NCBI GenBank assembly: GCA_000990585.1
Contig: LBQD01000001.1
Location: 207,276 to 271,275, forward strand
Length of the DNA: 64,000 bases
Source of the DNA: Candidatus Moranbacteria bacterium GW2011_GWE2_35_2-
GTDB lineage: Bacteria > Patescibacteriota > Minisyncoccia > Moranbacterales > UBA9337
Direction of reading: 5' to 3'
The notes beneath the pieces are model-generated. The model saw nothing but the letters and a program-made list of their open reading frames with translations, made no database searches and was not told the DNA's origin. Below are positions 1-16,036 of this stretch, one piece after another. Within the stretch, counting starts at the first letter, position 1. Each line of letters starts with the position of its first letter. The translations under genes were made by a program, and so were the position numbers.

Positions 1-294
1 GGACCGGAAATGATTTCTTGCCCTACCTGCGGCAGAACAGAAATTGATTTAATCGGATTGGCGAACAAAGTTGAAAAAGCGCTTTTGAAAATAAAAATAC
101 CTATTAAGGTAGCTGTAATGGGATGCGTGGTTAACGGTCCCGGAGAAGCCCGAGAAGCGGATATCGGAGTAGCCGGAGGAAAAGGAATGGGAGCTATTTT
201 TGCCAAAGGAAAAGTCATCAAAAGCGTCAAAGAAAAAGACATCCTCCCCACTCTTTTGGAAGAAATCAGGAAACTGGAAAAAGAAAAAATATAG
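1..294 (+). CDS. ispG: 4-hydroxy-3-methylbut-2-en-1-yl diphosphate synthase, C-terminal part (5' end outside window)
   Basis: SCPTCGRT and VAVMGCVVNGPGEAREAD Fe-S motifs; frame open from base 1. Confidence 0.95.
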   Translation, partial: GPEMISCPTCGRTEIDLIGLANKVEKALLKIKIPIKVAVMGCVVNGPGEAREADIGVAGGKGMGAIFAKGKVIKSVKEKDILPTLLEEIRKLEKEKI

Positions 295-303
295 AAAAAT
301 ACA

Positions 304-333
304 AAAAAACAAGGAAATATTTCCTTGTTTTTT
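304..333. terminator. Bidirectional intrinsic terminator
   Basis: Perfect palindrome aaaaaacaaggaaatatttccttgtttttt between convergent genes. Confidence 0.7.
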
Positions 334-359
334 ATATTACAAAAACACGCAAAAATCAC

Positions 360-2048
360 CTATTCCCCCTCCTTCATCCCCACTTCGGTGCTGATATTAG
401 GGTCAATCCATTTTAGGGGAAGTTGAATGTAGAAGCGCGAACCTTTTCCGATGCCGTCCGACTCAACCCAAACCCTTCCGCCATGCGCTTCAATAATATT
501 TTTCGCCACAAACAAACCTAAACCAGTTCCAGTGGCATTAAGTCTTGAGGTATTTTTACCGCGAGAGAATTTTTTGAAAAGATATGGAATTTCATCTCTC
601 GGTATTCCAATTCCAGTATCGGAAACAATAATTTTCACTGAGTTTGAATCGCTTTCAAATCCGATCTCCACCCCTCCTTTTTCAGTATATTTAATTGCAT
701 TGTCGATAAAATTGGAAATAACTTCGCGTACCTTGATTCCATCAACGTGAAAAACAGGCAATGGACTTTTTGGAGCGTTGACTTTCAAAAATAATCCTTC
801 GTCTTCAGCTTTGAGCGCCAAACTATCACACGATTGACTAACCAAATCCTCTAATCGCGCATCTGCCAAATCATATTTCATTCTTCCAGATTCAATTCGC
901 GAAGCATTGAGTAAGTCTTCCACTAAAAGAATCAATCGCTCATTGGCACTATAAGCTTTTTGCAAAGCGTTTTTAACAGAATCATCCACTTGTCCATATG
1001 AACCTTCGACAACCAAAGACAAGTACCCCTTGATTGCCGTGAGCGGAGTACGCAATTGATGTGAAGCGATGGAGATAAACTCAGACTTGGCTTTGTCCAA
1101 CTTTTTCAATTGAATATTCGCTTTCACCAATTGCTGACTTAAAACCTCCAATTCTTCTTTTTGCTGAATATCCCGTTTTACTGATTTGGTCAAAATATAC
1201 CCAAACCCCAACGCTAAAATTAAAGTAATCCCAACTAAAATAAAATTCACCAAAGAATCAATAAAAAAATATTCAGAGGCAATAATAATTATCAATGAGA
1301 GCATCAAAGCTTGCACTCCGAATACTTTTACATTAAAAGCTTTGTAACGAACGATTAAATATGCCAAAACACCCATAAAAACAGGGGCTCCGAATAGTCC
1401 GTATTGGGTTATTTCCCAATCAGTGGTAATATTTCCAACTATATTCGCCCACGAAAAAGAAATGATAAAAAATATAACCCCTAAAGAAAATATTACGATA
1501 TGTTTCCTTGACATTCCTTCACGGATAAATATTAAATTCTTCACAAGAAAATAAATAATTAAAGCGGATAATAATATTTCGAAGGAATAATTATATTTCA
1601 TCAATTCTCCCTGTATTGATTCGCACACCGAAAGGTCAAAATACTTCAAGTTATATGTCGTCGAAAGCAAAAATAAAATCGGCAGAAAAAGAATAACTAC
1701 GACAAATTTGAATCGATAATCGGTTTTTTCTTTCAGATAATGAGAAACGAAATACAAAAGAGTTAAGTATATCAAAGGTTCAACCAAATTCATCAGTCCC
1801 CATGAAAGCATTATGATTCTGCTGTCGATATTGACCCATGTAATTACATCAAAAATCGACCACAAAGAAAACAAAATCGCCACAATAAAAATCAAAAATG
1901 CGCTTATGGAAGAAGTATTCTTGAAAAAAACATAAGATCCTATAACTAAGGTTGCTATTATTCCGGTAAAGTGTGAATAATATAACAACTGAGGAGCTAT
2001 GTCGGAAAAAAGAAATAGAAATGGTGCTGAAGCATCTTGGCAAAACAT
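360..2048 (-). CDS. Multi-TM sensor histidine kinase (HisKA + HATPase_c)
   Basis: ASHQLRTPL H-box, NFIDNAIKY N-box, DTGIG and GTGLGL G-boxes; about 290-aa hydrophobic N-terminus. Confidence 0.92.
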   Translation of the reverse strand: MFCQDASAPFLFLFSDIAPQLLYYSHFTGIIATLVIGSYVFFKNTSSISAFLIFIVAILFSLWSIFDVITWVNIDSRIIMLSWGLMNLVEPLIYLTLLYFVSHYLKEKTDYRFKFVVVILFLPILFLLSTTYNLKYFDLSVCESIQGELMKYNYSFEILLSALIIYFLVKNLIFIREGMSRKHIVIFSLGVIFFIISFSWANIVGNITTDWEITQYGLFGAPVFMGVLAYLIVRYKAFNVKVFGVQALMLSLIIIIASEYFFIDSLVNFILVGITLILALGFGYILTKSVKRDIQQKEELEVLSQQLVKANIQLKKLDKAKSEFISIASHQLRTPLTAIKGYLSLVVEGSYGQVDDSVKNALQKAYSANERLILLVEDLLNASRIESGRMKYDLADARLEDLVSQSCDSLALKAEDEGLFLKVNAPKSPLPVFHVDGIKVREVISNFIDNAIKYTEKGGVEIGFESDSNSVKIIVSDTGIGIPRDEIPYLFKKFSRGKNTSRLNATGTGLGLFVAKNIIEAHGGRVWVESDGIGKGSRFYIQLPLKWIDPNISTEVGMKEGE

Positions 2049-2130
2049 TTTTTTATTTTTATATTATATTATTTTATTTTTTATTGCCCTATAATTATAC
2101 CACAAATTAAATCAATACATCTACTAAATA

Positions 2131-3423
2131 TTATATCCAACCCCACTTTCTCAATTTTTCCCCATCTTCCTGTTCAAACTTCATCCCGATATCATTTCTG
2201 TAAAACTTTTTCGGAATTATAATTTTTTTAATTATTCTATGAATATTCTCTCTAACCTCCCCGACTGTCCCGCCTGAACATGCAACATTCAAAACAAATC
2301 CGGAATCTCCTGCTATCCTAAATTTCCCGTCATCATCCCTATAAACTTCATCGAAATGAATATTTTTAATTTCATCTTCTGTTAATTTAGATGAAAAATA
2401 AATTTCTTTATTCCTAAATGAATATTTTTCATTATCAACTTTATATGGAAAAGGAGGAACCGCAATCAAAACAGTCATAGAAAATCCATCTTTATATTTT
2501 AATTCGTATTTTTCTCCGTCCGCCACCGCTTTTAAAAATTTACTCCAATCGGATATATGCAAAGATTCTTGTGCATGAATAGCAGGCCAGCCAAATCTTG
2601 TTGTCAATTCCAATGGAAAAATTTTACCTTTATTAACAATACAATTTATATCAACATCGCCACGAAAATCTATTTTCTGAAAAAATGGTTTTAATTTTTC
2701 CAGTGTAGCTTGGAATAATTTATTGTTTTCATCCTTTTCATACCACATCAAAGTTCCCATTTCATCGGTTTTCGGACCTATACATCCCGCAAATAAATCT
2801 TTATGCTCCATATTAATTTCGATAGGACCAACCCAATCATTTCCATTAAAATATCTCGCCACTCCAATTTCAATTCCATATACCCTTTTTTGCAAATCTA
2901 CCGGAATACATTTTTCCTTATTTTGAAAATAAGATTCAAGAACATCAATAACATCCCTTCCGTCCTTAAATTCTCCCACATAGTTACAAGTCTTATCTTG
3001 ATGTCCATTTTGCTTAATAACCCAAGGTCCTTCATTATTTTTCACAAATGCAACTGCTTTTTCCAATAAATCGAATCTTTCCGTTGGAGCAATATCAATT
3101 CCGCAAGCAGAAAATATTTTTTGTCCGTATTGCCGATCATGCTCGAGCTTGTCTCCCATTTCGCATCCTCCGATAACGGAATATCCGTTTTTTCTCAACT
3201 CATCTTGAATTTTTCCATATCCAGTGCTATCAAAGACAATCATCCCCTCTTTTCCGACCCATTCAAGATCCTTTTCCCAATTGTCTGTTTTTTCAACCAT
3301 TCCATCGAAACATTTTTTCAAATCATGATCATCGATGAAAAGTCGCACGTCATTGCCTTCATTTTTCAATCTATACGCCAAATCTCCGCCTGACAAATCT
3401 CTCGAAACAAAAAGTATGTTCAT
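2131..3423 (-). CDS. PurD-like ATP-grasp amide ligase (divergent)
   Basis: PWVIK, GPKTDEMG (cf. PurD GPNTGGMG), LELTTRFGWP, YRNDIG; the canonical N-terminal GSGGREHA is absent. Confidence 0.75.
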   Translation of the reverse strand: MNILFVSRDLSGGDLAYRLKNEGNDVRLFIDDHDLKKCFDGMVEKTDNWEKDLEWVGKEGMIVFDSTGYGKIQDELRKNGYSVIGGCEMGDKLEHDRQYGQKIFSACGIDIAPTERFDLLEKAVAFVKNNEGPWVIKQNGHQDKTCNYVGEFKDGRDVIDVLESYFQNKEKCIPVDLQKRVYGIEIGVARYFNGNDWVGPIEINMEHKDLFAGCIGPKTDEMGTLMWYEKDENNKLFQATLEKLKPFFQKIDFRGDVDINCIVNKGKIFPLELTTRFGWPAIHAQESLHISDWSKFLKAVADGEKYELKYKDGFSMTVLIAVPPFPYKVDNEKYSFRNKEIYFSSKLTEDEIKNIHFDEVYRDDDGKFRIAGDSGFVLNVACSGGTVGEVRENIHRIIKKIIIPKKFYRNDIGMKFEQEDGEKLRKWGWI

Positions 3424-3474
3424 AAAAAAATAATTCTGCGCAATTCCGGATAAAACCGCAAAAAATAAACTTGA

Positions 3475-4038
3475 TTATATATTATTTAAAAATCTCATAA
3501 TCCCATCATACCCCAAAGAATAGGTACCTGTCCAAAACACTGCTTGAAGCGATGTCATAAAAAAAATAACCAGTCCTTTTTTAAAGATAGTGTTGAGTTC
3601 ATTTTTAAAGTATTCGACCATTCTTTCCGGGCCATCCCAAATAGACGCTTTCAGTGCAAAAATGAAAAAAGAAGTCATACCGACCATTTTTGATTTAGAA
3701 AAAATTTTCCCAATAGATCTTCTATATTCTTGTCCTAAAGTCAAATCTTTTCCTGATTTAATGCAGATAATAAGAAGTAAGGTGGCTGAAATAAAATCAA
3801 AAGCCCACATCGCAAAAAATGCTTCCGCAAAACCCGATCCTGCCTGCTTAAATATGATTATCAAAAGAATGCTAAGTCCTGTTAATCCATAATCAAGAAT
3901 TGAATAAACAGCCCAGCGGATTACAATTGATTTTGTCCGTAAAAATTTTTCCCGTAAGGTTTCTTCACCTAATATCAGTCCGCTTCCGAGTATTATAACA
4001 GCCACCACCCCTAAAATTTTCGCAATATTCTCTTCCAT
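3475..4038 (-). CDS. Hypothetical membrane protein
   Basis: 187-aa ORF with several hydrophobic segments; no motif recognised. Confidence 0.7.
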   Translation of the reverse strand: MEENIAKILGVVAVIILGSGLILGEETLREKFLRTKSIVIRWAVYSILDYGLTGLSILLIIIFKQAGSGFAEAFFAMWAFDFISATLLLIICIKSGKDLTLGQEYRRSIGKIFSKSKMVGMTSFFIFALKASIWDGPERMVEYFKNELNTIFKKGLVIFFMTSLQAVFWTGTYSLGYDGIMRFLNNI

Positions 4039-4047
4039 TAAATTATT

Positions 4048-4109
4048 CTTAATTTCAAATCAACCAAATCCCAATTTCCACCCACTGCGTTTTATTATAC
4101 ATAAAAAAA
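4048..4109. repeat. 62-bp direct repeat, copy 1 (TATAAT on minus strand; promoter/leader of the 4038 gene)
   Basis: cttaatttcaaatcaaccaaatcccaatttccacccactgcgttttattatacataaaaaaa, identical to 9498-9559. Confidence 0.95.
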
Positions 4110-4134
4110 TTTAGAAAAACAAATCTGACAAATA

Positions 4135-4177
4135 AAAAAGAGGCCGAATGGAAATCCATAAAGCCCCTTATGCTCGT
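4135..4177 (-). terminator. Probable terminator after the LysRS-like gene
   Basis: Minus strand GGGGCTTTATGGATTTCCATTCGGCCTC hairpin followed by a T6 run. Confidence 0.5.
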
Positions 4178-4190
4178 ACAAATAACTGCA

Positions 4191-5498
4191 TTAAAAAACT
4201 GGCAAGATACAAGTCTCTCTCGCATTCTTTTCGCCTTCTTGAAAAAGCATATAGAAACGATTGAGACCGAAGCCTATTCCGGCCGTCGGTGGAAGACCGA
4301 ATCCTAATGCACTAAGATAATCCTCATTTATTACTCTTCCTGTTCTCTCGGATTGTTCTATTAAGAGAGAAGAAACTTTTTTCATGTCATTTTCATCAGT
4401 TGAAATAGTTGCCATATTCACCCCCATTGCAATAAAAAAGGCACTTTCAGACATTTTCTCGTTTTGAGAATTTCTTTTGGCAAATGGAGATATTCCCGAC
4501 GGAACATCCACTAAAAAAGTTGGCTCAATAAAATTGGGGGTGAAAATCTTATCTACTAATTTCATTGTCCAAGTAAATTCATCCATATCCTCGAAAAAGA
4601 CCCCAGAAAATTTTCTCGCCAACCAAGTAGCCGTGCATTTATCCCCTCTAATTCCCAGAAACTCAAGACAAGCTTCATCAAAAGTTTTCCTGGCAAAAGG
4701 AGGTTTAAAGCAAACTTCACTATTACCATCAAATATAGATGATTGCCCAGTGACCTTGGTTAAAACATGGAAAATCATTCGCTCCAATAACTGCATCATA
4801 TCGTGATAATTCTGGTTAACTGCATACAATTCCAGTAGAGTAAATTCCGGTAAATGCATCCTATCAATTCCTTCATTCCTGAAGGATTGAGAAAGTTCAT
4901 AGACCTTTTCAAATCCTGCTACCATCAACCTTTTGAGCTTTAATTCACTGGTTAAGCTCAAATAAAGTTTTTTTCCATTAGCCTTGCAAACCGTTTGAAA
5001 TGGTTCGGCTTGACCTCCTTCAAAATGTTCCTGAAGAATGCCTGTGACAAATTCCCTAAATCCTTCTTTTCTCAGAAATTGCCTGACAGCATCATTCAAT
5101 TGAGACATTATCAAAATATAATCAAAAAGAGATTTATTAGCAATAATATCCATAACTTTATTTCCGCTTCTGCTCAGATGATTAATTCCTCCGAGCTTAT
5201 TCTGAAGGACTTCACATCCTTCTTTCTCCAGATAAACTGATTTAATAGAAATAGATGGCTCTCCTTTTTGAGTTACGATTTTCTCTCCTTCAAAGAAAAT
5301 CAAACTACCTAAACCCACTTTTTTGAATTGTTCATAATCAGTAGTTAATCCTTTTTGAATCAATAGCTGAACATCTTCTTCTTGAAAGCGAACTTTCCAG
5401 AATGATATTTTTCCAAAATCTCTCTTTTTGAGAACTCTGGCATAACCAGAAAACTGCGTGCCGTTTTCAACCTTTTCAAGAAAATTCTTATCTCTCAT
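4191..5498 (-). CDS. Class II lysyl-tRNA synthetase paralogue (divergent)
   Basis: N-terminal OB-fold-like region; ELKLKRL; motif 2 FRNEGIDRMHLPEF; motif 3 GLPPTAGIGFGLNR; degenerate substrate-binding segment. Confidence 0.85.
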   Translation of the reverse strand: MRDKNFLEKVENGTQFSGYARVLKKRDFGKISFWKVRFQEEDVQLLIQKGLTTDYEQFKKVGLGSLIFFEGEKIVTQKGEPSISIKSVYLEKEGCEVLQNKLGGINHLSRSGNKVMDIIANKSLFDYILIMSQLNDAVRQFLRKEGFREFVTGILQEHFEGGQAEPFQTVCKANGKKLYLSLTSELKLKRLMVAGFEKVYELSQSFRNEGIDRMHLPEFTLLELYAVNQNYHDMMQLLERMIFHVLTKVTGQSSIFDGNSEVCFKPPFARKTFDEACLEFLGIRGDKCTATWLARKFSGVFFEDMDEFTWTMKLVDKIFTPNFIEPTFLVDVPSGISPFAKRNSQNEKMSESAFFIAMGVNMATISTDENDMKKVSSLLIEQSERTGRVINEDYLSALGFGLPPTAGIGFGLNRFYMLFQEGEKNARETCILPVF

Positions 5499-5545
5499 AG
5501 CTTCTCTCCATTTTTTGAAATGTAAATGAACTTTTATTAAAAATT

Positions 5546-6454
5546 CTATTTTTTAGGTATAAACACGAACTCTCCACAACCTGCTCCGACATCCTTACCT
5601 GCAGTCATAAATCTGACAATTTCATTTTCAACCCCATTATTTCTTAATTTATCTTCAAACTCTAATAAATCACCATAACCCGCCTTTTGATAATTGTCAA
5701 TATCGTTATTGGGTTCCGTTAATATTAGTTTAAAAATTTCCTTTTTGTCTTTTAGCAAATTTGCCAGTTTTTTAACATCTTCATTAAGATTATTAAATCC
5801 TAAAAACAACATGTAATTCAACCAAATAAATCTGCCTGTTTTTTTATAATAATCCTCAGCCGATTTAATAATTTCAGAAATTGAATACTTATTGGCAGCA
5901 GGCATAATTTTTTTTCTTTTTTCATCATCCGAAGCGTGCAAAGAAACCCAAAGGTCAATAGGAAGCTTTTCTTCCGCTAACTTATTCAATGAGTCAGGTA
6001 TTCCTACTGTCGCCAAGGCAATTCTTCTTATTCCGCTATACAAATCCTTTTTTTCTATAAGCTCTCTCATACAATTCACAACTTCGTCATAATTATCCAA
6101 TGGCTCACCTATTCCCATAAAAACAATACAATCAAATTTTTCAGTTTTTTCTTCCTTAGCTAAAACTCTTAACTCATCTTTCATTTCTTTCTTTGATAAA
6201 TTTCTCAAATATCCGTTTTTTCCCGAGGTGCAAAATTTGCAACCATATTTGCAACCCACTTGAGTCGAAATACAAGCATGCTCCTCCATCCTGCCATCCA
6301 TAATCATATGGAATGCCGCACTTTCAATCATATTTCCATCGTCTAATTTCAATCTCAGTTTTAAATCAGAAAGAGGCTGGAAGGTTTCTTTTTTCCATTT
6401 ATCTGTTTTTTGACGAGGATAACTATATTTTTTTCTATTTATAACTTTCATCAT
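5546..6454 (-). CDS. RlmN/Cfr-family (class A) radical SAM methyltransferase, short form
   Basis: CISTQVGCKYGCKFC, FMGIGEPLDN, SLHA, C-terminal AGCGE; 302 aa. Confidence 0.88.
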   Translation of the reverse strand: MMKVINRKKYSYPRQKTDKWKKETFQPLSDLKLRLKLDDGNMIESAAFHMIMDGRMEEHACISTQVGCKYGCKFCTSGKNGYLRNLSKKEMKDELRVLAKEEKTEKFDCIVFMGIGEPLDNYDEVVNCMRELIEKKDLYSGIRRIALATVGIPDSLNKLAEEKLPIDLWVSLHASDDEKRKKIMPAANKYSISEIIKSAEDYYKKTGRFIWLNYMLFLGFNNLNEDVKKLANLLKDKKEIFKLILTEPNNDIDNYQKAGYGDLLEFEDKLRNNGVENEIVRFMTAGKDVGAGCGEFVFIPKK

Positions 6455-6457
6455 TTT

Positions 6458-7489
6458 TTACCCAGCCACACCTGATTCTTTAATTTCAAAAATATTATTC
6501 CGAGAATCAAGCATCACTTTAGCTCCTAACGGCAAGGTCATTATTGGAGAGACATGACCAATGTTCGCATTAAATAAAATTGGATAATTATACTTCTTTG
6601 TATAATAATCAATAATTTTTCTAAGTTCTTTATTATCATCTTCATTATAAAAGTATGGTCTTCCGATTATTAACCCTTTTATATCCTTAAACACTCCTAT
6701 ATTATCTATATCAGCTAAAAATGAATCTAGATCAGCTAGAGGAAATTTTTCTCCCGGACTTGATTCGGGGATATCAATAAACATAATCTTATTTTTAAAA
6801 TCTACCCAGTATTCAGTTCCTGTGAGATGATTCATGGATGGAATACAACCTCCAAAAATTTGCCCTTGCGCTTTTCCTTTCTTCCACCATTCGTAACCTT
6901 TCGAAGGAGTTAGCTTCCTGGCTCTGGTTTGGTCTTTTTTCTCAAACCAATCCAAAAATTCCCAAGTCCAGGAATTAGACTGATTTACGTTACCAATCAC
7001 CTTATTATCCATTACTCCTTTTTCAAAATATTCCAACGTGTATGGCAAAACTTCAGGGTACTCTCCAAATTCAGAAATGATGCAGGGACCGTAATAAGTC
7101 CTTAAGTTAGCCTTTACCGCAAAAGCCATATGAAGCACTGTGATATCTGAATATCCTATAAAAATTTTAGGATTGTCCCTAATAACATCAAAATTAAGAT
7201 ATTTTAAAACTTGATTGGAATGGTCACCTCCAATTGTTGTGATTATCGCCTTAACTTCTTTATCTAAAAACATCTCGTGAATATCATCAGCCCTTTCTTT
7301 TCCCGAGGCAGATACGTAACCATTGTTTTTCAGCGAATTTTTTGCATATTTAATATTGAATCCTAATTTCAATAAATTTTTTTTTGCCTGTTCTATTCGA
7401 TGTGGAAAAATAGGACCCAAGCCTGCTGACGGAGAAACAATCCCGATTATATCGCCTTTCTTTAATTTTTTTGGAATAATTAAGTTCAT
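6458..7489 (-). CDS. S66 family peptidase, MccF-like (microcin C immunity type)
   Basis: IVSPS, IGGDHSNQVL, FIGYSDIT (catalytic Ser), IGHVSPIMTLPLG (His), Trp-containing loop WTWEFLDW. Confidence 0.88.
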   Translation of the reverse strand: MNLIIPKKLKKGDIIGIVSPSAGLGPIFPHRIEQAKKNLLKLGFNIKYAKNSLKNNGYVSASGKERADDIHEMFLDKEVKAIITTIGGDHSNQVLKYLNFDVIRDNPKIFIGYSDITVLHMAFAVKANLRTYYGPCIISEFGEYPEVLPYTLEYFEKGVMDNKVIGNVNQSNSWTWEFLDWFEKKDQTRARKLTPSKGYEWWKKGKAQGQIFGGCIPSMNHLTGTEYWVDFKNKIMFIDIPESSPGEKFPLADLDSFLADIDNIGVFKDIKGLIIGRPYFYNEDDNKELRKIIDYYTKKYNYPILFNANIGHVSPIMTLPLGAKVMLDSRNNIFEIKESGVAG

Positions 7490-7500
7490 TTTGTTTTAAT

Positions 7501-8340
7501 TTAACTCTTAATAGCCACCACAAACATATTCATACCCCTATTTATAACTGTTGAATGACTGTTGTATTTCATTTCCAATTCAAATACCTTACTGAAAAAA
7601 TCCTCTCTCTCCAATGCATCTGAAATTCTACTTCTTTTAACATTTTCCGGGTCAAAATCTTCATATCCAGGTTGAACAAATACTGGAACTCCATAAGTTT
7701 TTTCGATAGAAAAACCTGCTTTTTGCAAATCATTTTCCAATATTTCTTTAGAAAAAACATTTAATTTTGGCACATAATCACCCCACTTAACCATTTTCTC
7801 CTCATCTAAATTATTCAGTTCTACAGCTTCAGCACAAAAATTATTTATTTTTGAAAAAATAGCATTATAAAAGCCATGACCCATTATAATAGCTTTTCCG
7901 CCTTTTTTTAAAATTCTATATATTTCACTGAACGCCTTTTCTTTTTCGTATATAAAACTTATCGGACTATAAATACTGATAACATAATCAATTGAGTCAG
8001 ATTTTAATTTTTCCATATTTTTCAAATCCCCTTCAATCAGTTGTACTCTACTTTCAATATCTGAATTTTTGATATTTTTTTCCGCCTCTTCAAGCATATC
8101 GCTAGACAAATCATATACAATAAATTTTGATTTATAGATTTTGCTTAAATCACAAACCCATCTTCCTGTTCCTCCTCCAGCATCCAAGATGATTGATTCC
8201 TCTCCAATATCAACAGGAATATTGTCCCTTATAATTTGCATAATTAAGGCATCAGATAGCTTCCAAAAACCATGTTTATTAGCATTATCGACATTTTTTG
8301 AATATGGCTTGAAAAAATTATCAAATTCTTTTTTATTCAT
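7501..8340 (-). CDS. Class I SAM-dependent methyltransferase
   Basis: ILDAGGGTG motif I, YDLSSDML, RILKKGG. Confidence 0.9.
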   Translation of the reverse strand: MNKKEFDNFFKPYSKNVDNANKHGFWKLSDALIMQIIRDNIPVDIGEESIILDAGGGTGRWVCDLSKIYKSKFIVYDLSSDMLEEAEKNIKNSDIESRVQLIEGDLKNMEKLKSDSIDYVISIYSPISFIYEKEKAFSEIYRILKKGGKAIIMGHGFYNAIFSKINNFCAEAVELNNLDEEKMVKWGDYVPKLNVFSKEILENDLQKAGFSIEKTYGVPVFVQPGYEDFDPENVKRSRISDALEREDFFSKVFELEMKYNSHSTVINRGMNMFVVAIKS

Positions 8341-8357
8341 ATTATTTAAAGTTAATA

Positions 8358-9476
8358 TTATGGGCGGGTTTCAATATTTTTAATTCTGGGATATAAAATA
8401 ACATCCCGTATATTATCCTTTCCTAAACTCCAAGCAATAAATCTTTCAATACCCAAACCAAAACCTGAAGTGGTCTTATAATTAGGTTGTTTCCTTAAGT
8501 CAATATACCATTCATATGGTTTTGGCGAAATATTTTCTTGTCTTTTGAGAGATTCATATATTTCATTCACATTATCTTGGCGCTGTCCGGAACCAACCAC
8601 TTCTCCTCCAAAAGAATTTTCCACTATAGGTGGGAAAAGCAAATCAGCATTAATTGTCTTATTAGGATTTTTTGGATTCGGTTTTTGATAAAAAGGAACT
8701 CTATCCCTATCAAAATCAGTAAGCCAAATAGGGGTTGTTACTTTCAAGATTTTCATAAGCTCAATTTCGCCCTCACAACTGATGTCATTACCATGACTGG
8801 TAAAATTAACCAACTCTCTTTTATCATTTTTTACCAATATATCAATCGCCTCGTCAAATGTAATTTTTGGAAATTCTTTAGTTCTCATTATTACCTCCAT
8901 GTATCGGCGTGTTTTTTCTGAATTTTCACTTATTTTTTTAACAATATTATTCATTGTAAAAATCACTTCAGCTAATGTCCTTATATACCCCTCAACTATT
9001 GGCAACAAATCATCCAACCTACCCTTCATTTCCATTTCACAATGATAGAATTGATTAAGATGACGCTTATCAGAATCCTCTCCCCGCATAGACGGCAAAT
9101 AGCAATAAACTTTTTCTAATCCATTCAAAAGTAAGGGCTCAAATCCGAATTGAGACGAATCAACTAAAAAAGTTTTCAAATTTCCAAACTTTATAGGAAC
9201 AGGTTTCGAATCAGATCCTGGACCCATAGGAGAAGAAATACTAGGAGTGAACATGAATAAATCAATATTTTTAGCTTTTTGTTTTTCGCTAAAATAAAAA
9301 TCAGAAATAATTTTAATGTAATGCCTCAAAACTATCAAAGCACGATAATAATCGCTGTCGCACAAATGCTTATAGTGCTTATTGGGGCAATACTCAGGCA
9401 TCTTGTATTTTTTATTTCCCTTTTTGAATATAGAATCATCTCCAATGATTTCTTTTTTCAATTTTTTTAACAACAT
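8358..9476 (-). CDS. Asparaginyl-tRNA synthetase-like protein, catalytic domain only
   Basis: FLVDSSQF; motif 2 PSMRGEDSDKRHLNQF; GEVVGSGQR; motif 3 GFGLGIERF...IRDVILYPR; no OB-fold anticodon domain. Confidence 0.85.
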   Translation of the reverse strand: MLLKKLKKEIIGDDSIFKKGNKKYKMPEYCPNKHYKHLCDSDYYRALIVLRHYIKIISDFYFSEKQKAKNIDLFMFTPSISSPMGPGSDSKPVPIKFGNLKTFLVDSSQFGFEPLLLNGLEKVYCYLPSMRGEDSDKRHLNQFYHCEMEMKGRLDDLLPIVEGYIRTLAEVIFTMNNIVKKISENSEKTRRYMEVIMRTKEFPKITFDEAIDILVKNDKRELVNFTSHGNDISCEGEIELMKILKVTTPIWLTDFDRDRVPFYQKPNPKNPNKTINADLLFPPIVENSFGGEVVGSGQRQDNVNEIYESLKRQENISPKPYEWYIDLRKQPNYKTTSGFGLGIERFIAWSLGKDNIRDVILYPRIKNIETRP

Positions 9477-9497
9477 AATAATAACTTTTTTTAATTC

Positions 9498-9559
9498 CTT
9501 AATTTCAAATCAACCAAATCCCAATTTCCACCCACTGCGTTTTATTATACATAAAAAAA
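9498..9559. repeat. 62-bp direct repeat, copy 2 (promoter/leader of the AsnRS-like operon)
   Basis: Identical to 4048-4109 (offset 5450 bp); ends 1 bp from the stop codon of the 9561-10193 gene. Confidence 0.95.
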
Positions 9560-9560
9560 A

Positions 9561-10193
9561 TTATAATGGAATTATTTCTATTGGCACGGCTTGATCAGCA
9601 TTTTCCATTGGCATATTCTCCTCTGCATCATCATCTTCTTTTGTAATATCGCCTTCTTCACTATTTAAATCCTCCTCTTGATTTTCCAATATGTCAATTT
9701 CCTCTTCCTCGCCAGCTTCTTCCAAAGCTTCCGCATCTTCCGCACAGTCATCTTCCTCAAGACATTTGTCGGTTTCTTCAATTGGATTTTGAGCGGAAAA
9801 AATAGCAGGATCATTGCAACTTGTTGCGGAATAATTTTCCATATTTTCCTCGGTGCAAAATTCCTCCCCGCAATCCTTCTCGCCCTCAGAGCACAAAAAC
9901 GGCTCACATTCTTCATCCGCATCCGGATCGCAAAAAGGAATATCACTGGCATTTCTTCTGACAACTTTGAAATACCAAACATCTTCTTCCATATTTCCCG
10001 TACAGGCTTCCCCTTCTTCGAATGATTCCGGATCACATTCCCACACAAAGCAGTTTTCACTATATGGGTCGCAATCAACTTGCGATTCGATAATATAATC
10101 CTTTTTAATTACTATCCTCCAAAATGTCGCTCCGATAGAAATAAAAATTAACGCAATGAAAACCGCTATCAGTATCTTTGATTTTTTATCCAT
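9561..10193 (-). CDS. Membrane-anchored Cys-rich acidic protein
   Basis: N-terminal TM, 12 Cys, Glu/Asp-rich tail. Confidence 0.75.
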   Translation of the reverse strand: MDKKSKILIAVFIALIFISIGATFWRIVIKKDYIIESQVDCDPYSENCFVWECDPESFEEGEACTGNMEEDVWYFKVVRRNASDIPFCDPDADEECEPFLCSEGEKDCGEEFCTEENMENYSATSCNDPAIFSAQNPIEETDKCLEEDDCAEDAEALEEAGEEEEIDILENQEEDLNSEEGDITKEDDDAEENMPMENADQAVPIEIIPL

Positions 10194-10234
10194 TTTTTTA
10201 AAAAAATTATATTAATTTTTATTTTACCGCCCTT

Positions 10235-12136
10235 TTATTTCTCCATTTTATTCTTACTGATTAAATTTCGTATCTCTTTCAAATCTACGTTTGGTTTTTT
10301 TCTGAGATTTTTGAATTTTTTTGGCGCAACATTTTGCAGTTGTGAAAGTTTTACAGGAATTCCGGAAGGAACATATATCGCCGGTTCAATTTTATTCTGA
10401 AACGGTTGAGTTTCTTCCGGTTCTTTTTTTGGAACAACCTTTTCCGCTTCCTTCTGTTTAGCTTTTGCTATCGTTCGCTGATAATCTTTAAGACAATCTT
10501 TGCAAAAAGTCGGTCTTTTTCCATCCGGCTTGAATGGAACCTTCACATTCGTTTCACAAGTGGCGCATTTGGCATCATACAAAACACGCTCAACATTACC
10601 ATCCTCAACATTTTGAGACTCAACTCTTTTTTCCGAAATCAAAACTTTATCCTGCGAGCGAGACTGAGATTGAACTTGCGTCGCCTGAGGTCGCAATTGC
10701 GGTTGTGGTTGTTGCCGTCGCGAAGAAACTTGCGGTCGAACAGATGGTTTTTCCCCGGACGCATTGTCTTTCTGATAACTTTTTCGAGTATTTTGACTGT
10801 CATTTTGATAATCATCATCTCCTCCATCAAAACTCACGCCACTATCAATAACCATTCCGCTCCAACGCGCAATCTTTTCTTCCACCTCTTTTTTATTACT
10901 ACCATACCTTTCTCTTGAATTGCGAATAATCTTTTCGAAATTTTTTTCCGTTTCCTTAATTTCCACCGGTGGCAATGTCGTCGCTGAAAAAGCATCTCCC
11001 GCTACTCCATCAATCATCAGCTTTAAATAAACATGATACTTTGGAAGATTAATGATATCATTAGCCATGAAAACTGGCTCAAATTCTTTTTCTAATTGCT
11101 CGGCATCTTCGGCTCCCACTCGAAAAGCAATAATTGTTCCAACGTTTCCAAAAACCGCATCACGCACCGTTGCATTGCCATCAATAACCAGCTGACTAAT
11201 GTATTGATGTGCCAAAGTAAGACTCAACCGATATTTCCGAGCCTCAGACAAAATACTAGCGAAAGATTCAGTTGCAAAATTTTGAAATTCATCCACGTGC
11301 AAATAAAAATCTTTTCTTTCGTCTTCCGGAATATCGACGCGTCCCATTACTCCCAATTGAATTTTTGTCACAATCATTCCACCCAAAAGACGCATCGCAT
11401 CTTCTCCGATTCTTCCCTTGGAAAGATTAACAATCAAGATTTTCTTGTTATCCATAATCTCCCGCATATCAATGGTAGATTTTGGTTGACCGACAATGTG
11501 CCGAATCACTGACGAAGAAAGAAATTGACCAACTTTATTTTGAATTGCCGCTACCGCTTCCTTTCTGAATCGATCCTCCCATTTGTCAAACTCATTAATC
11601 CAAAAAGATTTTACTACCGGATCTTTAATTTTCACATAAACCCTCTTCCGATAATCTTTGTCAGACATCATACGGCTTACTCCAAGCATTGTCGATCCGG
11701 GATAATCCAAAAGCGCCAAAATAGTATTATTCAGAATATATTCCATTCGAGGACTCCATACATCTGGCCAGATTTTTTTGAATACTCCCATCATACCGGA
11801 AGCTACTAGGTTTTTTTTATCTTCATCCACCGCCTCTAAAATATTAAAAGCAATTGGATATTCCGCATCTGACGGATTGAGATAAATCACATCGTTGATT
11901 CTTTCCGCCGGAACAGCCTTTAAAATTTTTTCCGCCGTATCTCCGTGCGGATCAATATATGCAACTCCGTGTCCATTGCGAATATCTTGAATCACCAAAT
12001 GCTCCAATAAATTGGTTTTTCCCATACCGGTTTTTCCAATCACATAAATATGTCTCCGTCGATCGTCGGTCTTAATTCCAAATTCCGTTTCGCGATTACG
12101 AAAATTTGTTTTAGCAAAAAAAGTTATATCGGACAT
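10235..12136 (-). CDS. VirD4/TraG/HerA-like ATPase with C-terminal CxxC-x17-CxxC domain
   Basis: Walker A GKTGMGKT, IDPHGD, Walker B VDEFQNF, SEARKY; CATC-x17-CKDC. Confidence 0.88.
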   Translation of the reverse strand: MSDITFFAKTNFRNRETEFGIKTDDRRRHIYVIGKTGMGKTNLLEHLVIQDIRNGHGVAYIDPHGDTAEKILKAVPAERINDVIYLNPSDAEYPIAFNILEAVDEDKKNLVASGMMGVFKKIWPDVWSPRMEYILNNTILALLDYPGSTMLGVSRMMSDKDYRKRVYVKIKDPVVKSFWINEFDKWEDRFRKEAVAAIQNKVGQFLSSSVIRHIVGQPKSTIDMREIMDNKKILIVNLSKGRIGEDAMRLLGGMIVTKIQLGVMGRVDIPEDERKDFYLHVDEFQNFATESFASILSEARKYRLSLTLAHQYISQLVIDGNATVRDAVFGNVGTIIAFRVGAEDAEQLEKEFEPVFMANDIINLPKYHVYLKLMIDGVAGDAFSATTLPPVEIKETEKNFEKIIRNSRERYGSNKKEVEEKIARWSGMVIDSGVSFDGGDDDYQNDSQNTRKSYQKDNASGEKPSVRPQVSSRRQQPQPQLRPQATQVQSQSRSQDKVLISEKRVESQNVEDGNVERVLYDAKCATCETNVKVPFKPDGKRPTFCKDCLKDYQRTIAKAKQKEAEKVVPKKEPEETQPFQNKIEPAIYVPSGIPVKLSQLQNVAPKKFKNLRKKPNVDLKEIRNLISKNKMEK

Positions 12137-12163
12137 AGTTTTATTAAATCATTGAAACAATTT

Positions 12164-13444
12164 TTATATTGGCAAATTTGCCGGTGCCCCTCCTCGCTTA
12201 GATTCGACTTTTTTCACTGAAGGTGCCACAACTGTCATATCCGGAAAATGAAAAATGGTCGCCAATTCCTCGGTATTGAGAAAAAATTTTGTTCCGGTCG
12301 GATCACGATCTTTGTACCTTTGAAATATTTTACGCTGGCGAAAAAGTGCGCGCATTTTTCCTCCTAAATAAACTCCATATGTCTTCGTTGCATTATCATG
12401 TTTAAATCCGTTCAAATTGGAATCGGAAAATTGGCGAATACCTCCCATAAAAGCTCCTATAACCGAACGATCAAGATTTTCTCTTTTTCCCAAAACAAGC
12501 AATCTGATTTTAGTTAGAAAAACCGTCTTACCCATTGATTCTTCGATCGCTTTCATCACCTCTTTTTCTCCGGGAGTGAGTCTGAATTCCAAAGGAGTTT
12601 GATCCGCCTTATCTTCCTTGGACGGAGCAAATTCCACTGGAGCAAAAATACCTTGAAAAATTCCCTTTATTACATCTGCAATATCTTTTCCGATACTGTT
12701 GAATACTCCGGGCTTTTCTTTCTTGACTCTTCCTGCTAATTTATCTATCAATGCTTTTCCGGAATTATAGTAATCAAGTTCTTCCGGAATTATAATAATT
12801 TGAAACCAAACCTGCTGTCCCGGTCCAATCGTTCCCATAGCTTCAACCAACGAAGACATCGGGTCAATCATTTTTCCAGTTACACTTTCTTCAAACCAGC
12901 GATAACTGCGCAAGGGATAAGCATCCGGCTTTATGAGCATAAAATCTGTTCCCCATAAATCCCAACTCTTATTCGGCACCAATCTCGGAACGTTATTTAT
13001 ATAATCCGAAACTTCCAAAATTTCCGCATTCGGATATTGTGCGTAAACATGCGATTCAACCAATTTTCTGTTTTGTTTCGTAGTGCGAATATAAAAATGA
13101 ACCTGTCCAGCATCACTCACTAATTCAAGACTAAAACTCAATGTAAGAGCGCCATCAACATACAAATCTTTCGCGCTAAGACCCTTATACACACCAGCAA
13201 GACCATTGTATATGGATTCCATCGGTTGCGGGCTTCTTTCTAGCTCACGAGGGGGAATAATTTCTAACAACGTCCAATCCAAAGAACCAACAAAATTATT
13301 TTGGACAAAATCCATCCAAAGCAGTTTGAATAAATAATAAAAAACGGGAGGAAGCACTATAAACCAAATTTTAGACAACAAAAACCACCCGCCTGTAATA
13401 CTTTGACCCAAATTTTGAAAAGATTCTCCGATTATCTCAAACAT
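12164..13444 (-). CDS. Conserved CPR-type membrane protein upstream of the VirD4-like ATPase
   Basis: N-terminal TM; AQYPNAEI, EELATIFHFP, C-terminal PANLP; start placed at MFEIIG. Confidence 0.7.
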   Translation of the reverse strand: MFEIIGESFQNLGQSITGGWFLLSKIWFIVLPPVFYYLFKLLWMDFVQNNFVGSLDWTLLEIIPPRELERSPQPMESIYNGLAGVYKGLSAKDLYVDGALTLSFSLELVSDAGQVHFYIRTTKQNRKLVESHVYAQYPNAEILEVSDYINNVPRLVPNKSWDLWGTDFMLIKPDAYPLRSYRWFEESVTGKMIDPMSSLVEAMGTIGPGQQVWFQIIIIPEELDYYNSGKALIDKLAGRVKKEKPGVFNSIGKDIADVIKGIFQGIFAPVEFAPSKEDKADQTPLEFRLTPGEKEVMKAIEESMGKTVFLTKIRLLVLGKRENLDRSVIGAFMGGIRQFSDSNLNGFKHDNATKTYGVYLGGKMRALFRQRKIFQRYKDRDPTGTKFFLNTEELATIFHFPDMTVVAPSVKKVESKRGGAPANLPI

Positions 13445-13497
13445 TTTATTTTTTATTTTTTCAGAAATTATACCTGCCCACAAAAACCTTCCGGTTA

Positions 13498-14541
13498 TTA
13501 TTTTTTCACAGTATATCGATTTCTATCCACTCGAACAAAAAAATTGTTCAAATTTATCATAATTGTAGATTTTTTAACTTTTCGACTTGCTAAAACTTTA
13601 TTCAAAATTTCATCCTTGCTAAGAGGCTTTCCGCTTTGCTTGAAAATATCATCCAAAACATCCTTAACTGTTCCACGCTTATATCCCCACTCTGAAAGAG
13701 CATATACGCCTCGTCCAACCAAAACAAATCTTTTATCCTTAATTAATTCATTATGCACTGTCTGTGGATGAGATTTTTTCTTACTAAGTCCGTGTTTGTC
13801 GATAAATTCGGCGACTTTGGTAAAATGAAGGGGCTTTCCATATTCTTTCATAATCAAATACGCTTTTTCCCTTGCTCCCTTTGGATTGATATCACTCCAA
13901 TCAATCATTCCCCATTTTCCAAAATTATTGATTTTTATTTCCTTGCAAACATCCAAATAATCCAAAATCACATCCTTTTTAATAGTGGAATCAATGCTGG
14001 AAATTTCTTTTATAACTTCTTCCGAAGAAATTGCAGACTTTCTTTCCATCAAAACATTTTTTGCGATATCTTTGCATTTATTCCATTGCTCGAAATTAAA
14101 ATCCTTCAAATAAAAGGACTTTTCTATTTCCAAACCTCCCACTCGAAACTCAACGCCATTGATCACTTTCAAAAAAAACTTTATTGCGCCTTGCGTTTTG
14201 ACATTTTGACTCAAATTATTCAAAAGCTTTTCTTCCTTGATTATACCATTACTTTTTTCGATTGCAAACTTGATCTCCTTTTCAATTAACAGAATGTTTT
14301 TATCTCCCTTCTTTTTTATTTTCGCAATCGCCTCTCGTATAATTTGACGAACTCTTTCTCTGGTTATATTATATTTTTTTCCAATACCCTCCAATGTGGT
14401 TGAATATCCGTCAAGTACTCCAAATCTCATCTTAATTATTTTATCCGCTCTCTCTGGCAGAAAATCCAAAACAGCGTTCATATATTTAACCGCCGCAAAA
14501 TCCCTCTTTTCGGAAACTTTAACTTTTTTACTCTTATTCAT
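13498..14541 (-). CDS. Sigma-70 region 4 HTH plus HARE-HTH (RNAP delta-like) DNA-binding protein
   Basis: TLEGIGKKYNITRERVRQI; GKPLHF...QTVHNELIKDKRFVLVGRGVYALSEW. Confidence 0.8.
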   Translation of the reverse strand: MNKSKKVKVSEKRDFAAVKYMNAVLDFLPERADKIIKMRFGVLDGYSTTLEGIGKKYNITRERVRQIIREAIAKIKKKGDKNILLIEKEIKFAIEKSNGIIKEEKLLNNLSQNVKTQGAIKFFLKVINGVEFRVGGLEIEKSFYLKDFNFEQWNKCKDIAKNVLMERKSAISSEEVIKEISSIDSTIKKDVILDYLDVCKEIKINNFGKWGMIDWSDINPKGAREKAYLIMKEYGKPLHFTKVAEFIDKHGLSKKKSHPQTVHNELIKDKRFVLVGRGVYALSEWGYKRGTVKDVLDDIFKQSGKPLSKDEILNKVLASRKVKKSTIMINLNNFFVRVDRNRYTVKK

Positions 14542-14580
14542 ATTTATTGAGAAAAATAAAATTATTTAAATTGTCAAATT

Positions 14581-14610
14581 AGAATAACACATATTTGGGA
14601 TAATTGTCAA
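14581..14610 (-). promoter_or_regulatory. Sigma70-type promoter for the sigma4/HARE-HTH gene
   Basis: Minus strand TTGACA-18-TATTCT with TG extension. Confidence 0.5.
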
Positions 14611-14614
14611 GAGA

Positions 14615-14643
14615 TTGATTTTAAACTTTTCAATTGGTATAAT
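14615..14643 (+). promoter_or_regulatory. Sigma70-type promoter for dnaB
   Basis: TTGATT-17-TATAAT with extended TG, about 22 bp before the ATG. Confidence 0.6.
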
Positions 14644-14665
14644 AAATAAATCACTACTATATTAT

Positions 14666-16036
14666 ATGGCAAACAAACAATCTCAGAACAATCTGCGCGT
14701 ACCGCCGAACAATCTCGAAGCCGAACAATCGGTCCTTGGCTCATTAATGCTAGACAAAGATGCTATAATCAAGGTTGCGGATTTTTTGAATATTGGAGAT
14801 TTCTACAAAGACACACACAATATCATCTACCAATCGATGCTTAGCTTATATGAAAGCAAAGAACCGATTGATGTCTTAAGTCTTTCCAATAAGCTGGAAG
14901 AAAATAAAGAGCTGGAAATTACCGGGGGATCAAGCTATTTGGCATCGTTGGTAAATTCCGTGCCATCCTCCGCTAATGTTGTTCACTATGCAAAAGTTGT
15001 CCAGAAAAAAGCAATTCTACGCCGCCTGATTAATGTTTCCAACGAAATAACCGAGATCGGATACCAAGAATCGGAAGATGTGGAAAAAACTCTCGATCAA
15101 GCCGAACAAAAACTTTTCAGTGTTTCACAAAAGTACACAAAAAAAGATTTTGTTCCCATTAAATCAATCTTGGAAAGTGCTTTCAATCGCATCGACGAGT
15201 TGCATAAAGGCGAACATGATTTTCGCGGAATACCTACCGGTTTTTCCGATTTGGACAATATTCTTTCCGGACTGCAAAAATCCGATCTTATTATTCTCGC
15301 CGCCCGTCCATCAATCGGAAAAACGACGCTCGCATTAGATATTGCCCGCCAAATCGGAACAAAAAGCAAAATTCCGGTCGGAATATTTTCTCTGGAAATG
15401 TCCTCGGATCAACTTATCGACAGAATGATTGCCGCTGAAGCGGATGTTGATTTGTGGCGACTACGAACAGGAAGACTGCGTAGCGATGCAGGCAATGATG
15501 ACTTTCAAAGAATTGGTAGCGCTATGGGCTCGCTCAGTGAAGCGCCGATTTATATCGATGATGCCGGTAGCGCCAACATTATGGAAATTCGCACTATGGC
15601 GCGTCGATTACAATCTGAACATAAGGTCGGATTGATTATTATCGACTATTTACAATTGATGGAAGGAAGAAAAACACAAGGCGATAGCCGTGTGCAGGAA
15701 ATTTCCGAAATCTCCCGCGCCCTCAAACAGCTAGCGAGAGAAATCAATGTTCCTGTTTTGGCGCTTTCTCAATTGTCACGCGCCGTTGAATCACGCAGTC
15801 CACAAATTCCGAAACTTTCCGACCTTCGCGAATCTGGATCAATCGAACAAGACGCCGATGTTGTTCTGTTTTTGTATCGTGAAGACCGAGAAAAACCCGA
15901 TACGCCCAATAAAAATATCGTCGAAGTAATTGTTTCCAAACATAGAAACGGTCCGCTTGGAAAAGCTCAATTATATTTCAAAGAAGAATCCACTACTTTC
16001 AAAAATTTGGAAAAAATCCATAATAATCCTCAGTAA
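14666..16036 (+). CDS. dnaB: Replicative DNA helicase
   Basis: AARPSIGKT, IIIDYLQLM, ALSQLSR, SDLRESGSIEQDAD, KHRNGP. Confidence 0.97.
   Translation: MANKQSQNNLRVPPNNLEAEQSVLGSLMLDKDAIIKVADFLNIGDFYKDTHNIIYQSMLSLYESKEPIDVLSLSNKLEENKELEITGGSSYLASLVNSVPSSANVVHYAKVVQKKAILRRLINVSNEITEIGYQESEDVEKTLDQAEQKLFSVSQKYTKKDFVPIKSILESAFNRIDELHKGEHDFRGIPTGFSDLDNILSGLQKSDLIILAARPSIGKTTLALDIARQIGTKSKIPVGIFSLEMSSDQLIDRMIAAEADVDLWRLRTGRLRSDAGNDDFQRIGSAMGSLSEAPIYIDDAGSANIMEIRTMARRLQSEHKVGLIIIDYLQLMEGRKTQGDSRVQEISEISRALKQLAREINVPVLALSQLSRAVESRSPQIPKLSDLRESGSIEQDADVVLFLYREDREKPDTPNKNIVEVIVSKHRNGPLGKAQLYFKEESTTFKNLEKIHNNPQ

Follow-up and report, generated by a model that had tools for sequence, protein, structure and literature searches.

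Few phosphoramidate nucleotide antibiotics are listed in PMC6429109. For agrocin 84, plasmid pAgK84 carries agnA (described in PMC4392301), a methyltransferase gene, agnB2 (encoding a LeuRS), the MccF-like agnC5 and the radical S-adenosylmethionine (SAM) gene agnC7. PMC8323819 calls the agrocin pathway unknown, describes AgnC1 as ProRS-like and gives Ensifer and Actinobacteria as the only sources of agn-like clusters. In the microcin C (McC) system, MccB makes a P-N bond via a succinimide from Asn, and MccF cuts aspartate from processed McC, its W186 stacking on the adenine; stand-alone MccF homologues confer McC resistance (PMC8323819). In the case of ascamycin, AcmF, devoid of the residues for ATP and alanine activation, transfers the alanine of Ala-tRNA onto a nucleoside sulfamate, and AcmD is an extra, resistant AlaRS (PMC12945691). 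Here, we compare with these systems a block of five genes found in a 64,000-nucleotide stretch (hereafter, the window) of Candidatus Moranbacteria bacterium GW2011_GWE2_35_2- (contig LBQD01000001.1, positions 207,276 to 271,275). It is probable that this block makes a nucleotide antimetabolite.

Comparison with known clusters

The block consists of five minus-strand open reading frames (ORFs) separated by 17, 11, 3 and 47 bp, as the original prediction made from the DNA letters had described it. In order, the products are an asparaginyl-tRNA synthetase (AsnRS)-like protein, a class I methyltransferase, an S66 peptidase, an RlmN-like radical SAM protein and LysX, our name for a degenerate paralogue of lysyl-tRNA synthetase (LysRS). 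G000 denotes the genome of the window (923 kb, 96.6% complete); other G and L numbers denote the genomes and loci compared.

With the agrocin 84 cluster, the block shares an AgnA-clade gene followed by a class I methyltransferase, an MccF-like S66 peptidase (AgnC5), a second aminoacyl-tRNA synthetase (aaRS)-like protein and a radical SAM protein. It differs in having 5 genes instead of 17 and a LysRS paralogue instead of AgnC1, and in the absence of an intact resistant synthetase (AgnB2), of an exporter (AgnG) and of acyl-chain or sugar-phosphate genes. Moreover, its methyltransferase and radical SAM proteins are of other subfamilies, the AgnB1 type (family c6) occurring in sister cassettes. 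Ascamycin AcmF/AcmD, as well as SbzA and AbmF/AbmK, also involve a degenerate aaRS, which in many cases adjoins an additional, intact copy of that synthetase. However, LysX is LysRS-derived and has an anticodon domain, sulfamate-forming genes are absent and the acceptor is a putative phosphoramidate. Microcin C (mccABCDEF) has the MccF-type peptidase in common with the block, and MccD-like, MccE-N-like, GNAT and HIT genes in common with sister cassettes; in the block, there is no ThiF/MccB adenylase or MccC exporter, nor a precursor peptide (short peptide ORFs were not searched), and an AsnRS-fold enzyme is found instead. The radical SAM protein has the fold, the cluster motif and both mechanistic cysteines of RlmN/Cfr but not the domain formed by the first 78 residues of RlmN (PF21016). 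Finally, a LysRS paralogue also adjoins a radical SAM gene in EpmA/EpmB (PoxA/YjeK). EpmA has no OB domain, and its partner is an aminomutase, whereas LysX has an OB domain, scores 113 vs 287 bits with the genX model and accompanies an RlmN-like protein.

Judged by its sequence, the cassette is a real, mobile and minimal form akin to the agrocin, ascamycin and microcin C systems and not a strict member of the agn cluster family. Because a core of AgnA, methyltransferase and MccF-type S66 occurs in the agn cluster itself, the combination is partly known, and the initial statement that no described cluster contains it does not hold. A literature search that covered few subscription papers and no supplements (the electronic supplementary information of PMC8323819 may list more agn-like clusters) gave no account of the cassette, nor of a pathway of this kind with a LysRS-derived transferase or an RlmN devoid of the N-terminal domain. 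According to this search, only the LysRS-like part, the RlmN-like part and the minimal form are undescribed.

The AgnA-like core

Pfam assigns the five products, in gene order, to tRNA-synt_2 (without OB-fold), class I methyltransferase, Peptidase_S66 plus S66C, Radical_SAM, and tRNA-synt_2 plus a weak OB-fold. The NCBIfam models for aaRS, RlmN and Cfr all remain below cut-off (LysRS 286 vs 468 bits, RlmN 197 vs 290, AsnRS 169 vs 343, Cfr 153 vs 530).

For the AsnRS-like protein, at least 120 relatives of 61% or higher identity were found. Its plasmid matches come from Bradyrhizobium (54%), Bacillales, Pantoea, Streptomyces and Xenorhabdus and include AgnA (31%, E 8e-42); all outrank AsnRS (1e-20). 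Only AsnRS-level matches (24-29%) were obtained in a phage collection. In a tree of 28 proteins, 24 of them (the window protein, AgnA and 22 others) split from AsnRS/AspRS with a Shimodaira-Hasegawa-like approximate likelihood ratio test (SH-aLRT) value of 99, the tree being a quick one with long-branch warnings and not a full maximum-likelihood search. AgnA-clade proteins share an S-P-x-G-x-G-S-D-type loop, where type B proteins have an insertion. E147 and R299 are retained in the window protein as aligned to P. horikoshii AsnRS, and we take these columns to be the Asn-recognising Glu and Arg of the latter. By its position in the tree, the AsnRS-like gene belongs to the AgnA clade, in keeping with the kinship originally proposed.

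The peptidase was likewise rightly called MccF-type. S114, W181, D239 and H312 align to MccF S118, W186, E243 and H311, and matches to MccF-family structures (E 2e-62 to 1e-40) far exceed that to E. coli LdcA (9e-9); AgnC5 is matched at 32% over 321 aa (E 1e-59). The Ser and His are kept in all 78 cassette S66 proteins and the Trp186 equivalent in 76 of them, a conservation that points to a nucleotide substrate. At the two loci without S66, among 23 well-flanked ones, an S51 (PepE/cyanophycinase family) peptidase replaces it. Both S51 subfamilies act on aspartyl amides; the replacement thus points to an aspartyl-amide bond.

The methyltransferase belongs to family c2, present at 38 loci, and has 2avn and CmoM as nearest solved structures; no match was found in plasmids. 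MccD matches the AgnB1-type family c6 of sister cassettes (E 1e-23 to 1e-27), and the MccE decarboxylase matches family c31, co-located with c6. An MccD-like methyltransferase, an MccE-like decarboxylase and a His-like paralogue are associated in L061, L062, L065, L151, L153 and L156 (the paralogue was not seen in the short L065), which are predicted to be aminopropylated variants.

Distribution of the cassettes

A metagenome scan with the AsnRS-like profile was followed up for the best 80 of 237 confirmed loci, of which 70 remained after dropping 10 near-duplicates. S66 is present in 58 of the 70, the methyltransferase in 49 and a degenerate aaRS in 48, of Lys-like (6), Ala-like (24) or His-like (18) type, never two per locus; the matches behind the Ala-like and His-like labels are weak, and two Ala-like labels were assigned by hand. 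This lack of overlap has a permutation P of 2.5e-5, overstated as the loci are related. Among the 23 non-redundant loci with 3 kb on both sides, 21 have S66, 21 the methyltransferase and 21 exactly one degenerate aaRS (two: none). Starting from LysX instead, 15 genome loci gave 8 with the AsnRS-like gene, 11 with S66 and 9 with the methyltransferase, and in all seven without the AsnRS-like gene the contig ends within 1.9 kb of LysX. As far as these counts go, AgnA, methyltransferase and MccF-type S66 are a recurring core. Co-occurrence is wide, which disposes of the concern, raised with the original prediction, that these genes might never be found together elsewhere.

The type A core is found in 9/319 genomes of the order and 6/401 of a phylum sample. 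In two of the nine (L147:10117-11402 in G560; L157:7157-8261 in G037), the AsnRS-like gene is in two ORFs, which may reflect decay or an assembly error. All five genes recur in L041 in unchanged order (75.6% over 5292 nt vs the window). All three cassette proteins that were looked up in a 7272-bp contig labelled Desulfonauticus submarinus are present, and their accession spacing fits the same order. The label may be due to mis-binning, since L020, titled Bdellovibrionales, is identical to G560, which belongs to the order of G000.

Nine plasmid regions of the AgnA clade were inspected. Methyltransferase and S66 are both present in five (Bradyrhizobium, pAgK84, Xenorhabdus, Streptomyces NBC_01707 and Peribacillus), the methyltransferase alone in one and neither in three. 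In Bradyrhizobium plasmids (L035:6501-12773), a Patescibacteria-type (54%) AsnRS-like gene is accompanied by S66, HAD and methyltransferase genes and adjoins nodU, which suggests exchange with Patescibacteria-type cassettes. An agrocin-like region in a Xenorhabdus bovienii megaplasmid (L039:7896-16951) has AgnA-like, AgnB1-type methyltransferase, S66, nucleoside phosphorylase, extra LeuRS, ProRS-like and major facilitator superfamily (MFS) genes. The Peribacillus plasmid NZ_CP068052.1 (L129:1143-10400) carries ATP-grasp, MFS, AlaRS, AlaRS-like, methyltransferase, AgnA-like and S66 genes, a cultured alanyl-type version. In Pantoea agglomerans plasmids (L037:7392-10215), a GNAT domain is fused to an AgnA-like domain and an MFS transporter gene follows. 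Phosmidosine is an O-methyl phosphoramidate containing 8-oxoadenosine and a prolyl group. The Streptomyces sp. NBC_01707 plasmid NZ_CP109191.1 (L127:7914-16942), with AgnA-like, methyltransferase, a xanthine dehydrogenase-like pair, ProRS-like, S66 and P450 genes, fits a phosmidosine-type cluster; no such cluster was found in the literature search. A relationship between AgnC1 and the Streptomyces ProRS-like protein was considered and found no support (E 0.018). Elsewhere, a KamA-family aminomutase accompanies an Ala-like paralogue (L049:4965-8830, L053:8079-12139, L054, L072/L073), S51 replacing S66 in two of these loci, and beta-amino acid variants are possible.

LysX and the RlmN-like protein

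LysX proteins (about 60 clusters, 390-446 aa) form a group separate from ordinary LysRS. The model of the window protein has a predicted local distance difference test (pLDDT) score of 91.5 and matches LysRS with Z 37.0 (root-mean-square deviation 3.2, 426 residues aligned). When 57 LysX were compared with 54 ordinary LysRS, the anticodon triad R26/F33/Q44 was found in 54, 56 and 57 of the LysX, respectively; motif 2 R207/E209/H215/F219, E185, E223, Y225 and R414 are also kept, and the adenine residues are retained in the window protein. Glu at columns 354 and 361, on the other hand, occurs in 0/57 and 1/57 LysX vs 53/54 and 54/54 ordinary LysRS, and no LysX has Asn at column 364 or Glu at column 368 (Asp in 56). 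F354, N361, T364 and D368 of the window protein occupy the positions of LysU E414, E421, N424 and E428, presumably the metal/ATP glutamates and the Asn/Glu of the lysine pocket. Because the metal/ATP glutamates are lost, LysX is not the AgnB2-type immunity synthetase that had been proposed; its residue pattern resembles that of the tRNA-dependent transferase AcmF, as a predicted function. LysX profile searches gave 45 pattern matches in viral contigs, none confirmed, and, among the best 12 of 108 plasmid matches, identities of 30-32%, the annotated ones being lysS/lysU.

The immunity role would be filled in other cassettes by a separate intact LysRS. It follows LysX in many of them, is additional to the housekeeping copy in 5/5 genomes checked and has Lys at column 364 in 7/7; the AlaRS and AlaRS-like pair of Peribacillus is the alanine analogue of this pair. 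Of 23 LysX entries (some of them duplicates), the RlmN-like gene is present in 6 and an intact LysRS adjoins LysX in 10 (one, in L018, on the opposite strand and perhaps housekeeping); no entry combines the two. That the RlmN-like gene stands in for the extra LysRS is a lead only, because few lineages are concerned.

The RlmN-like protein keeps CxxxCxxC and both mechanistic cysteines (C61, C68, C72, C75 and C293). Its model aligns to RlmN 79-364, resembles RlmN (Z 34.2) more than Cfr (23.6) and is without the N-terminal PF21016 domain, as is the whole family (about 90 clusters, 295-339 aa). The median net charge (+1 vs +4 in RlmN) is uninformative. The protein is a paralogue of G000's own rlmN product (31% identity). 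Housekeeping genes are indeed present elsewhere in G000 (its one LysRS above cut-off is encoded on C3, and C4 carries a full-length rlmN), so that the LysRS-like and RlmN-like genes are not the only copies, an objection foreseen in the original prediction. The RlmN-like gene occurs in 6/319 genomes of the order, each with one LysRS over cut-off, and in 1/401 of a class-level sample (G000 only). It adjoins LysX in all five order genomes besides G000; in four of them the set of five is complete but differently ordered (the AsnRS-like gene being split in one), and the fifth ends at a contig edge.

Boundaries and insertion of the block

The features of the region are collected in Table 1.

Table 1. 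Predicted features of the five-gene block and its borders (window coordinates).
Feature	Position	Strand	Basis
Direct-repeat copy, upstream, 69 bp, leader/promoter-like, holds TATAAT, starts at stop codon of 210-aa ORF	9498..9566	-	
AgnA-clade AsnRS-like adenylating enzyme (predicted), 372 aa, without anticodon domain	8358..9476	-	Pfam, tree
Class I SAM methyltransferase, 279 aa, cassette family c2	7501..8340	-	Pfam
MccF-type S66 peptidase, 343 aa	6458..7489	-	Pfam, catalytic-residue alignment
RlmN-like radical SAM methyltransferase (predicted), 302 aa, N-terminal domain missing	5546..6454	-	Pfam, model
LysX, 435 aa, LysRS fold plus OB domain	4191..5498	-	Pfam, model, residue counts
Terminator-like hairpin and U-run 3' of last stop codon, weak	4127..4172	-	
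Direct-repeat copy, downstream, native leader (putative) of 187-aa ORF, single-copy in same-genus genomes	4048..4116	-	

The original prediction spoke of a duplicated promoter and a terminator. The duplication stands: the two copies of the 69-bp repeat are identical at 67/69 positions, and no third copy was found in the genome. We infer a promoter from where the repeat lies and from the fact that relatives have conserved it in front of the 187-aa ORF; the number of promoter-like sites in the region (36 vs 27.8 +/- 5.9 expected) does not exceed chance. A terminator is plausible; a consensus terminator scan did not call the hairpin, and the 161-nt region around it folds at z -1.33. An Rfam scan of window positions 1-16000 gave no match.

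None of the three same-genus genomes has the RlmN-like or the type A AsnRS-like gene; the downstream genes are kept. Other genes sit between the 210-aa and 187-aa ORFs in G002 and G003, and the G001 contig stops 0.5 kb upstream. Because G001 (94%) and G002 (91%) have a single repeat copy ahead of the 187-aa ORF, we infer that the repeat is the native leader, duplicated upon insertion. The five-gene block of L041 also sits between copies of its own 150-nt repeat, and bracketing repeats of 35-400 nt were found at 8/23 cassette loci vs 3/57 control windows, all from G000 and hence from one genome only. By its flanks and distribution, the block is a mobile, horizontally moving cassette. A shared att site was also considered. 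The window repeat matches same-genus leaders only, with no BLAST match to the L041 repeat, and an alignment of the two has nothing in common beyond a short GTGGGTGG stretch; since they barely match, a common recombination site was rejected.

In four DNA runs of one study, the block assembles as a single contig (5448-5480 nt) near flank depth (14.2/19.9/17.2/8.7 vs 12.7/18.3/17.6/8.9 for the left flank), and in three of them the repeat forms a separate 62-nt contig at 2.1-2.7x depth. This check is not independent because the window may itself derive from these runs. No excised (joined) form is among the contigs listed for these runs, and contigs cannot exclude one. The GC content of the block (32.7% vs 36.4%) is a weak signal, 58/893 windows being equally low.

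Upstream, a conserved HerA/VirD4-like operon (window 9561-14541) is not part of the cassette because it is found without it in G002 and, partly, in G003. On the other side lie a gene for a membrane histidine kinase (window 360-2048) and an ATP-grasp gene of PurD-like type (window 2131-3423; 88 vs 288 bits). Cassettes are likewise bordered by the PurD-like gene in L020, L041 and L077 and by similar kinase genes at other loci, which makes this a recurring insertion neighbourhood. Outside the window, repeats of 200-390 nt, spaced by about 2 kb, form a tandem family in a control window (G000:C1, about 287-302 kb), and ARAGORN finds a tRNA-Ala(AGC) beside a 91-nt tRNA-Lys(TTT) at G000:C1:153094-153171. 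A tRNA-Ala with A34 is unusual in bacteria.

Proposed pathway and alternative explanations

Within the antimetabolite reading, we lean towards a minimal pathway to lysyl-NH-AMP, an N-acyl phosphoramidate of the agrocin/microcin C warhead class, with LysRS as target. The exact order of the first three steps is tentative and may well be different. First, the AgnA-like enzyme would adenylate Asn and, in the manner of MccB on its peptide, form a P-N bond to yield isoasparaginyl-AMP. Then, S66 would cleave the aspartyl amide to give AMP-NH2, and would also guard against an intermediate toxic to AspRS. LysX, incapable of activating lysine with ATP, would transfer lysine from Lys-tRNA to the nitrogen of AMP-NH2, like AcmF. 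The product, Lys-NH-AMP, would be a non-hydrolysable LysRS inhibitor. Finally, the methyltransferase would modify the phosphate oxygen or a carboxyl and the truncated RlmN would methylate adenine C2, either as tailoring or as self-protection replacing a resistant extra LysRS.

It should, however, be noted that several points weigh against this proposal. The function of AgnA is itself only proposed in PMC8323819. G000 has no extra intact LysRS over cut-off. No AsnRS reaches the cut-off either in this 96.6% complete genome, where a housekeeping asnS had been expected; archaeal-type AspRS and GatB are encoded, which bears on the supply of free Asn. Among the genes and Pfam domains between the repeats, there is no exporter or uptake-moiety gene. 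The S66 acid is Asp, not Glu, in the window as in 26/78 relatives, and the S51 swap, at two similar loci, is probably one event. The methyltransferase is not of the AgnB1/MccD type (E 0.093 with AgnB1). Some AgnA homologues (the Pantoea GNAT fusion, two Streptomyces plasmids) have neither S66 nor methyltransferase nearby. Lastly, the family of the paralogue need not name the target because the pairs mismatch in Xenorhabdus (ProRS-like paralogue with LeuRS) and in agn (LeuRS with AgnC1).

An unlikely alternative, and the one that survives best, is that the same chemistry serves as an intracellular switch (toxin-antidote, or abortive infection/dormancy), the nucleotide stalling the cell's own translation under the restraint of S66 and the RlmN-like protein. 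The absence of an exporter gene would suit it, as would the patchy spread of the type A core, the excess of bracketing repeats over control windows and the split AsnRS-like genes. However, PADLOC has no match for the AsnRS-like, LysRS-like and S66 proteins (a generic methyltransferase match and a weak radical SAM match were its only results for the block), MFS exporters are present in the cultured-host versions from Xenorhabdus, Streptomyces and Peribacillus, and the extra intact LysRS, AlaRS or LeuRS fits a self-protecting producer.

The anticodon triad of the LysX OB-fold raises another idea, improbable in our view, namely that the block modifies tRNA or protein: LysX would bind U35 tRNAs, the RlmN-like protein methylate A37, the CmoM-like methyltransferase esterify a wobble carboxyl and S66 reverse acylation. 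The RlmN-like model does match RlmN-tRNA complexes (Z 34), and CmoM is the top NCBIfam match of the methyltransferase, far below cut-off (61 vs 366). Yet, the RlmN-like protein and LysX are optional (3/70 and 6/70 loci), a known small-molecule cluster has the core in common with the block, the family as a whole is without the RlmN N-terminal domain and the conserved Trp of S66 points to a nucleotide.

Slightly less probable still is a resistance or detoxification island only, in which S66, methyltransferase and altered synthetases neutralise foreign aminoacyl-adenylate antibiotics. The McC resistance given by stand-alone MccF homologues is consistent with it, as are the HIT, APH-like kinase, NUDIX, HD and GNAT genes of sister loci. 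Against this, the AgnA-like adenylating enzyme is the member that stays constant, LysX would be no back-up LysRS if the lost glutamates matter, and sister cassettes carry aminomutase, racemase, decarboxylase and ATP-grasp tailoring genes. Both this and tRNA modification are weaker than the biosynthetic reading.

RefSeq labels of several homologues and matches to PRK06462 models would make the AsnRS-like gene an ordinary asparagine synthetase A of the archaeal type, with incidental neighbours. This is highly improbable: all window hits to these models are below cut-off (160 vs 389), the match to P. abyssi AS-AR (3p8t) has 38 bits against 120 for AsnRS, linkage to S66 and methyltransferase is tight, and the genome uses the GatB route. 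Glu rather than Lys is found at the QxxxE column, and AgnA, too, is below the cut-off of these models.

Implications

If a nucleotide antimetabolite is made, a wider proposal can be formulated, which we consider doubtful. AgnA plus S66 may be a general, peptide-free route to AMP-NH2, where the MccF-type 'immunity' peptidase is a biosynthetic step and where swappable degenerate synthetases of Lys, Ala, His or Pro type lead to aaRS inhibitors, among them agrocin 84 and perhaps phosmidosine. Host-dependent Patescibacteria would use these against hosts or rivals, and an RlmN derivative would act on a small molecule, replacing a resistant LysRS.

The five-gene version isolates the conserved agrocin core and would permit a direct test of P-N bond formation. 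From the family, several aaRS inhibitors not yet described can be predicted, and the paralogue and the extra synthetase may often reveal their target. The family also offers a candidate phosmidosine-type cluster. If the proposal is true, antibiotic-type secondary metabolism would exist in Patescibacteria, a group credited with little capacity for biosynthesis.

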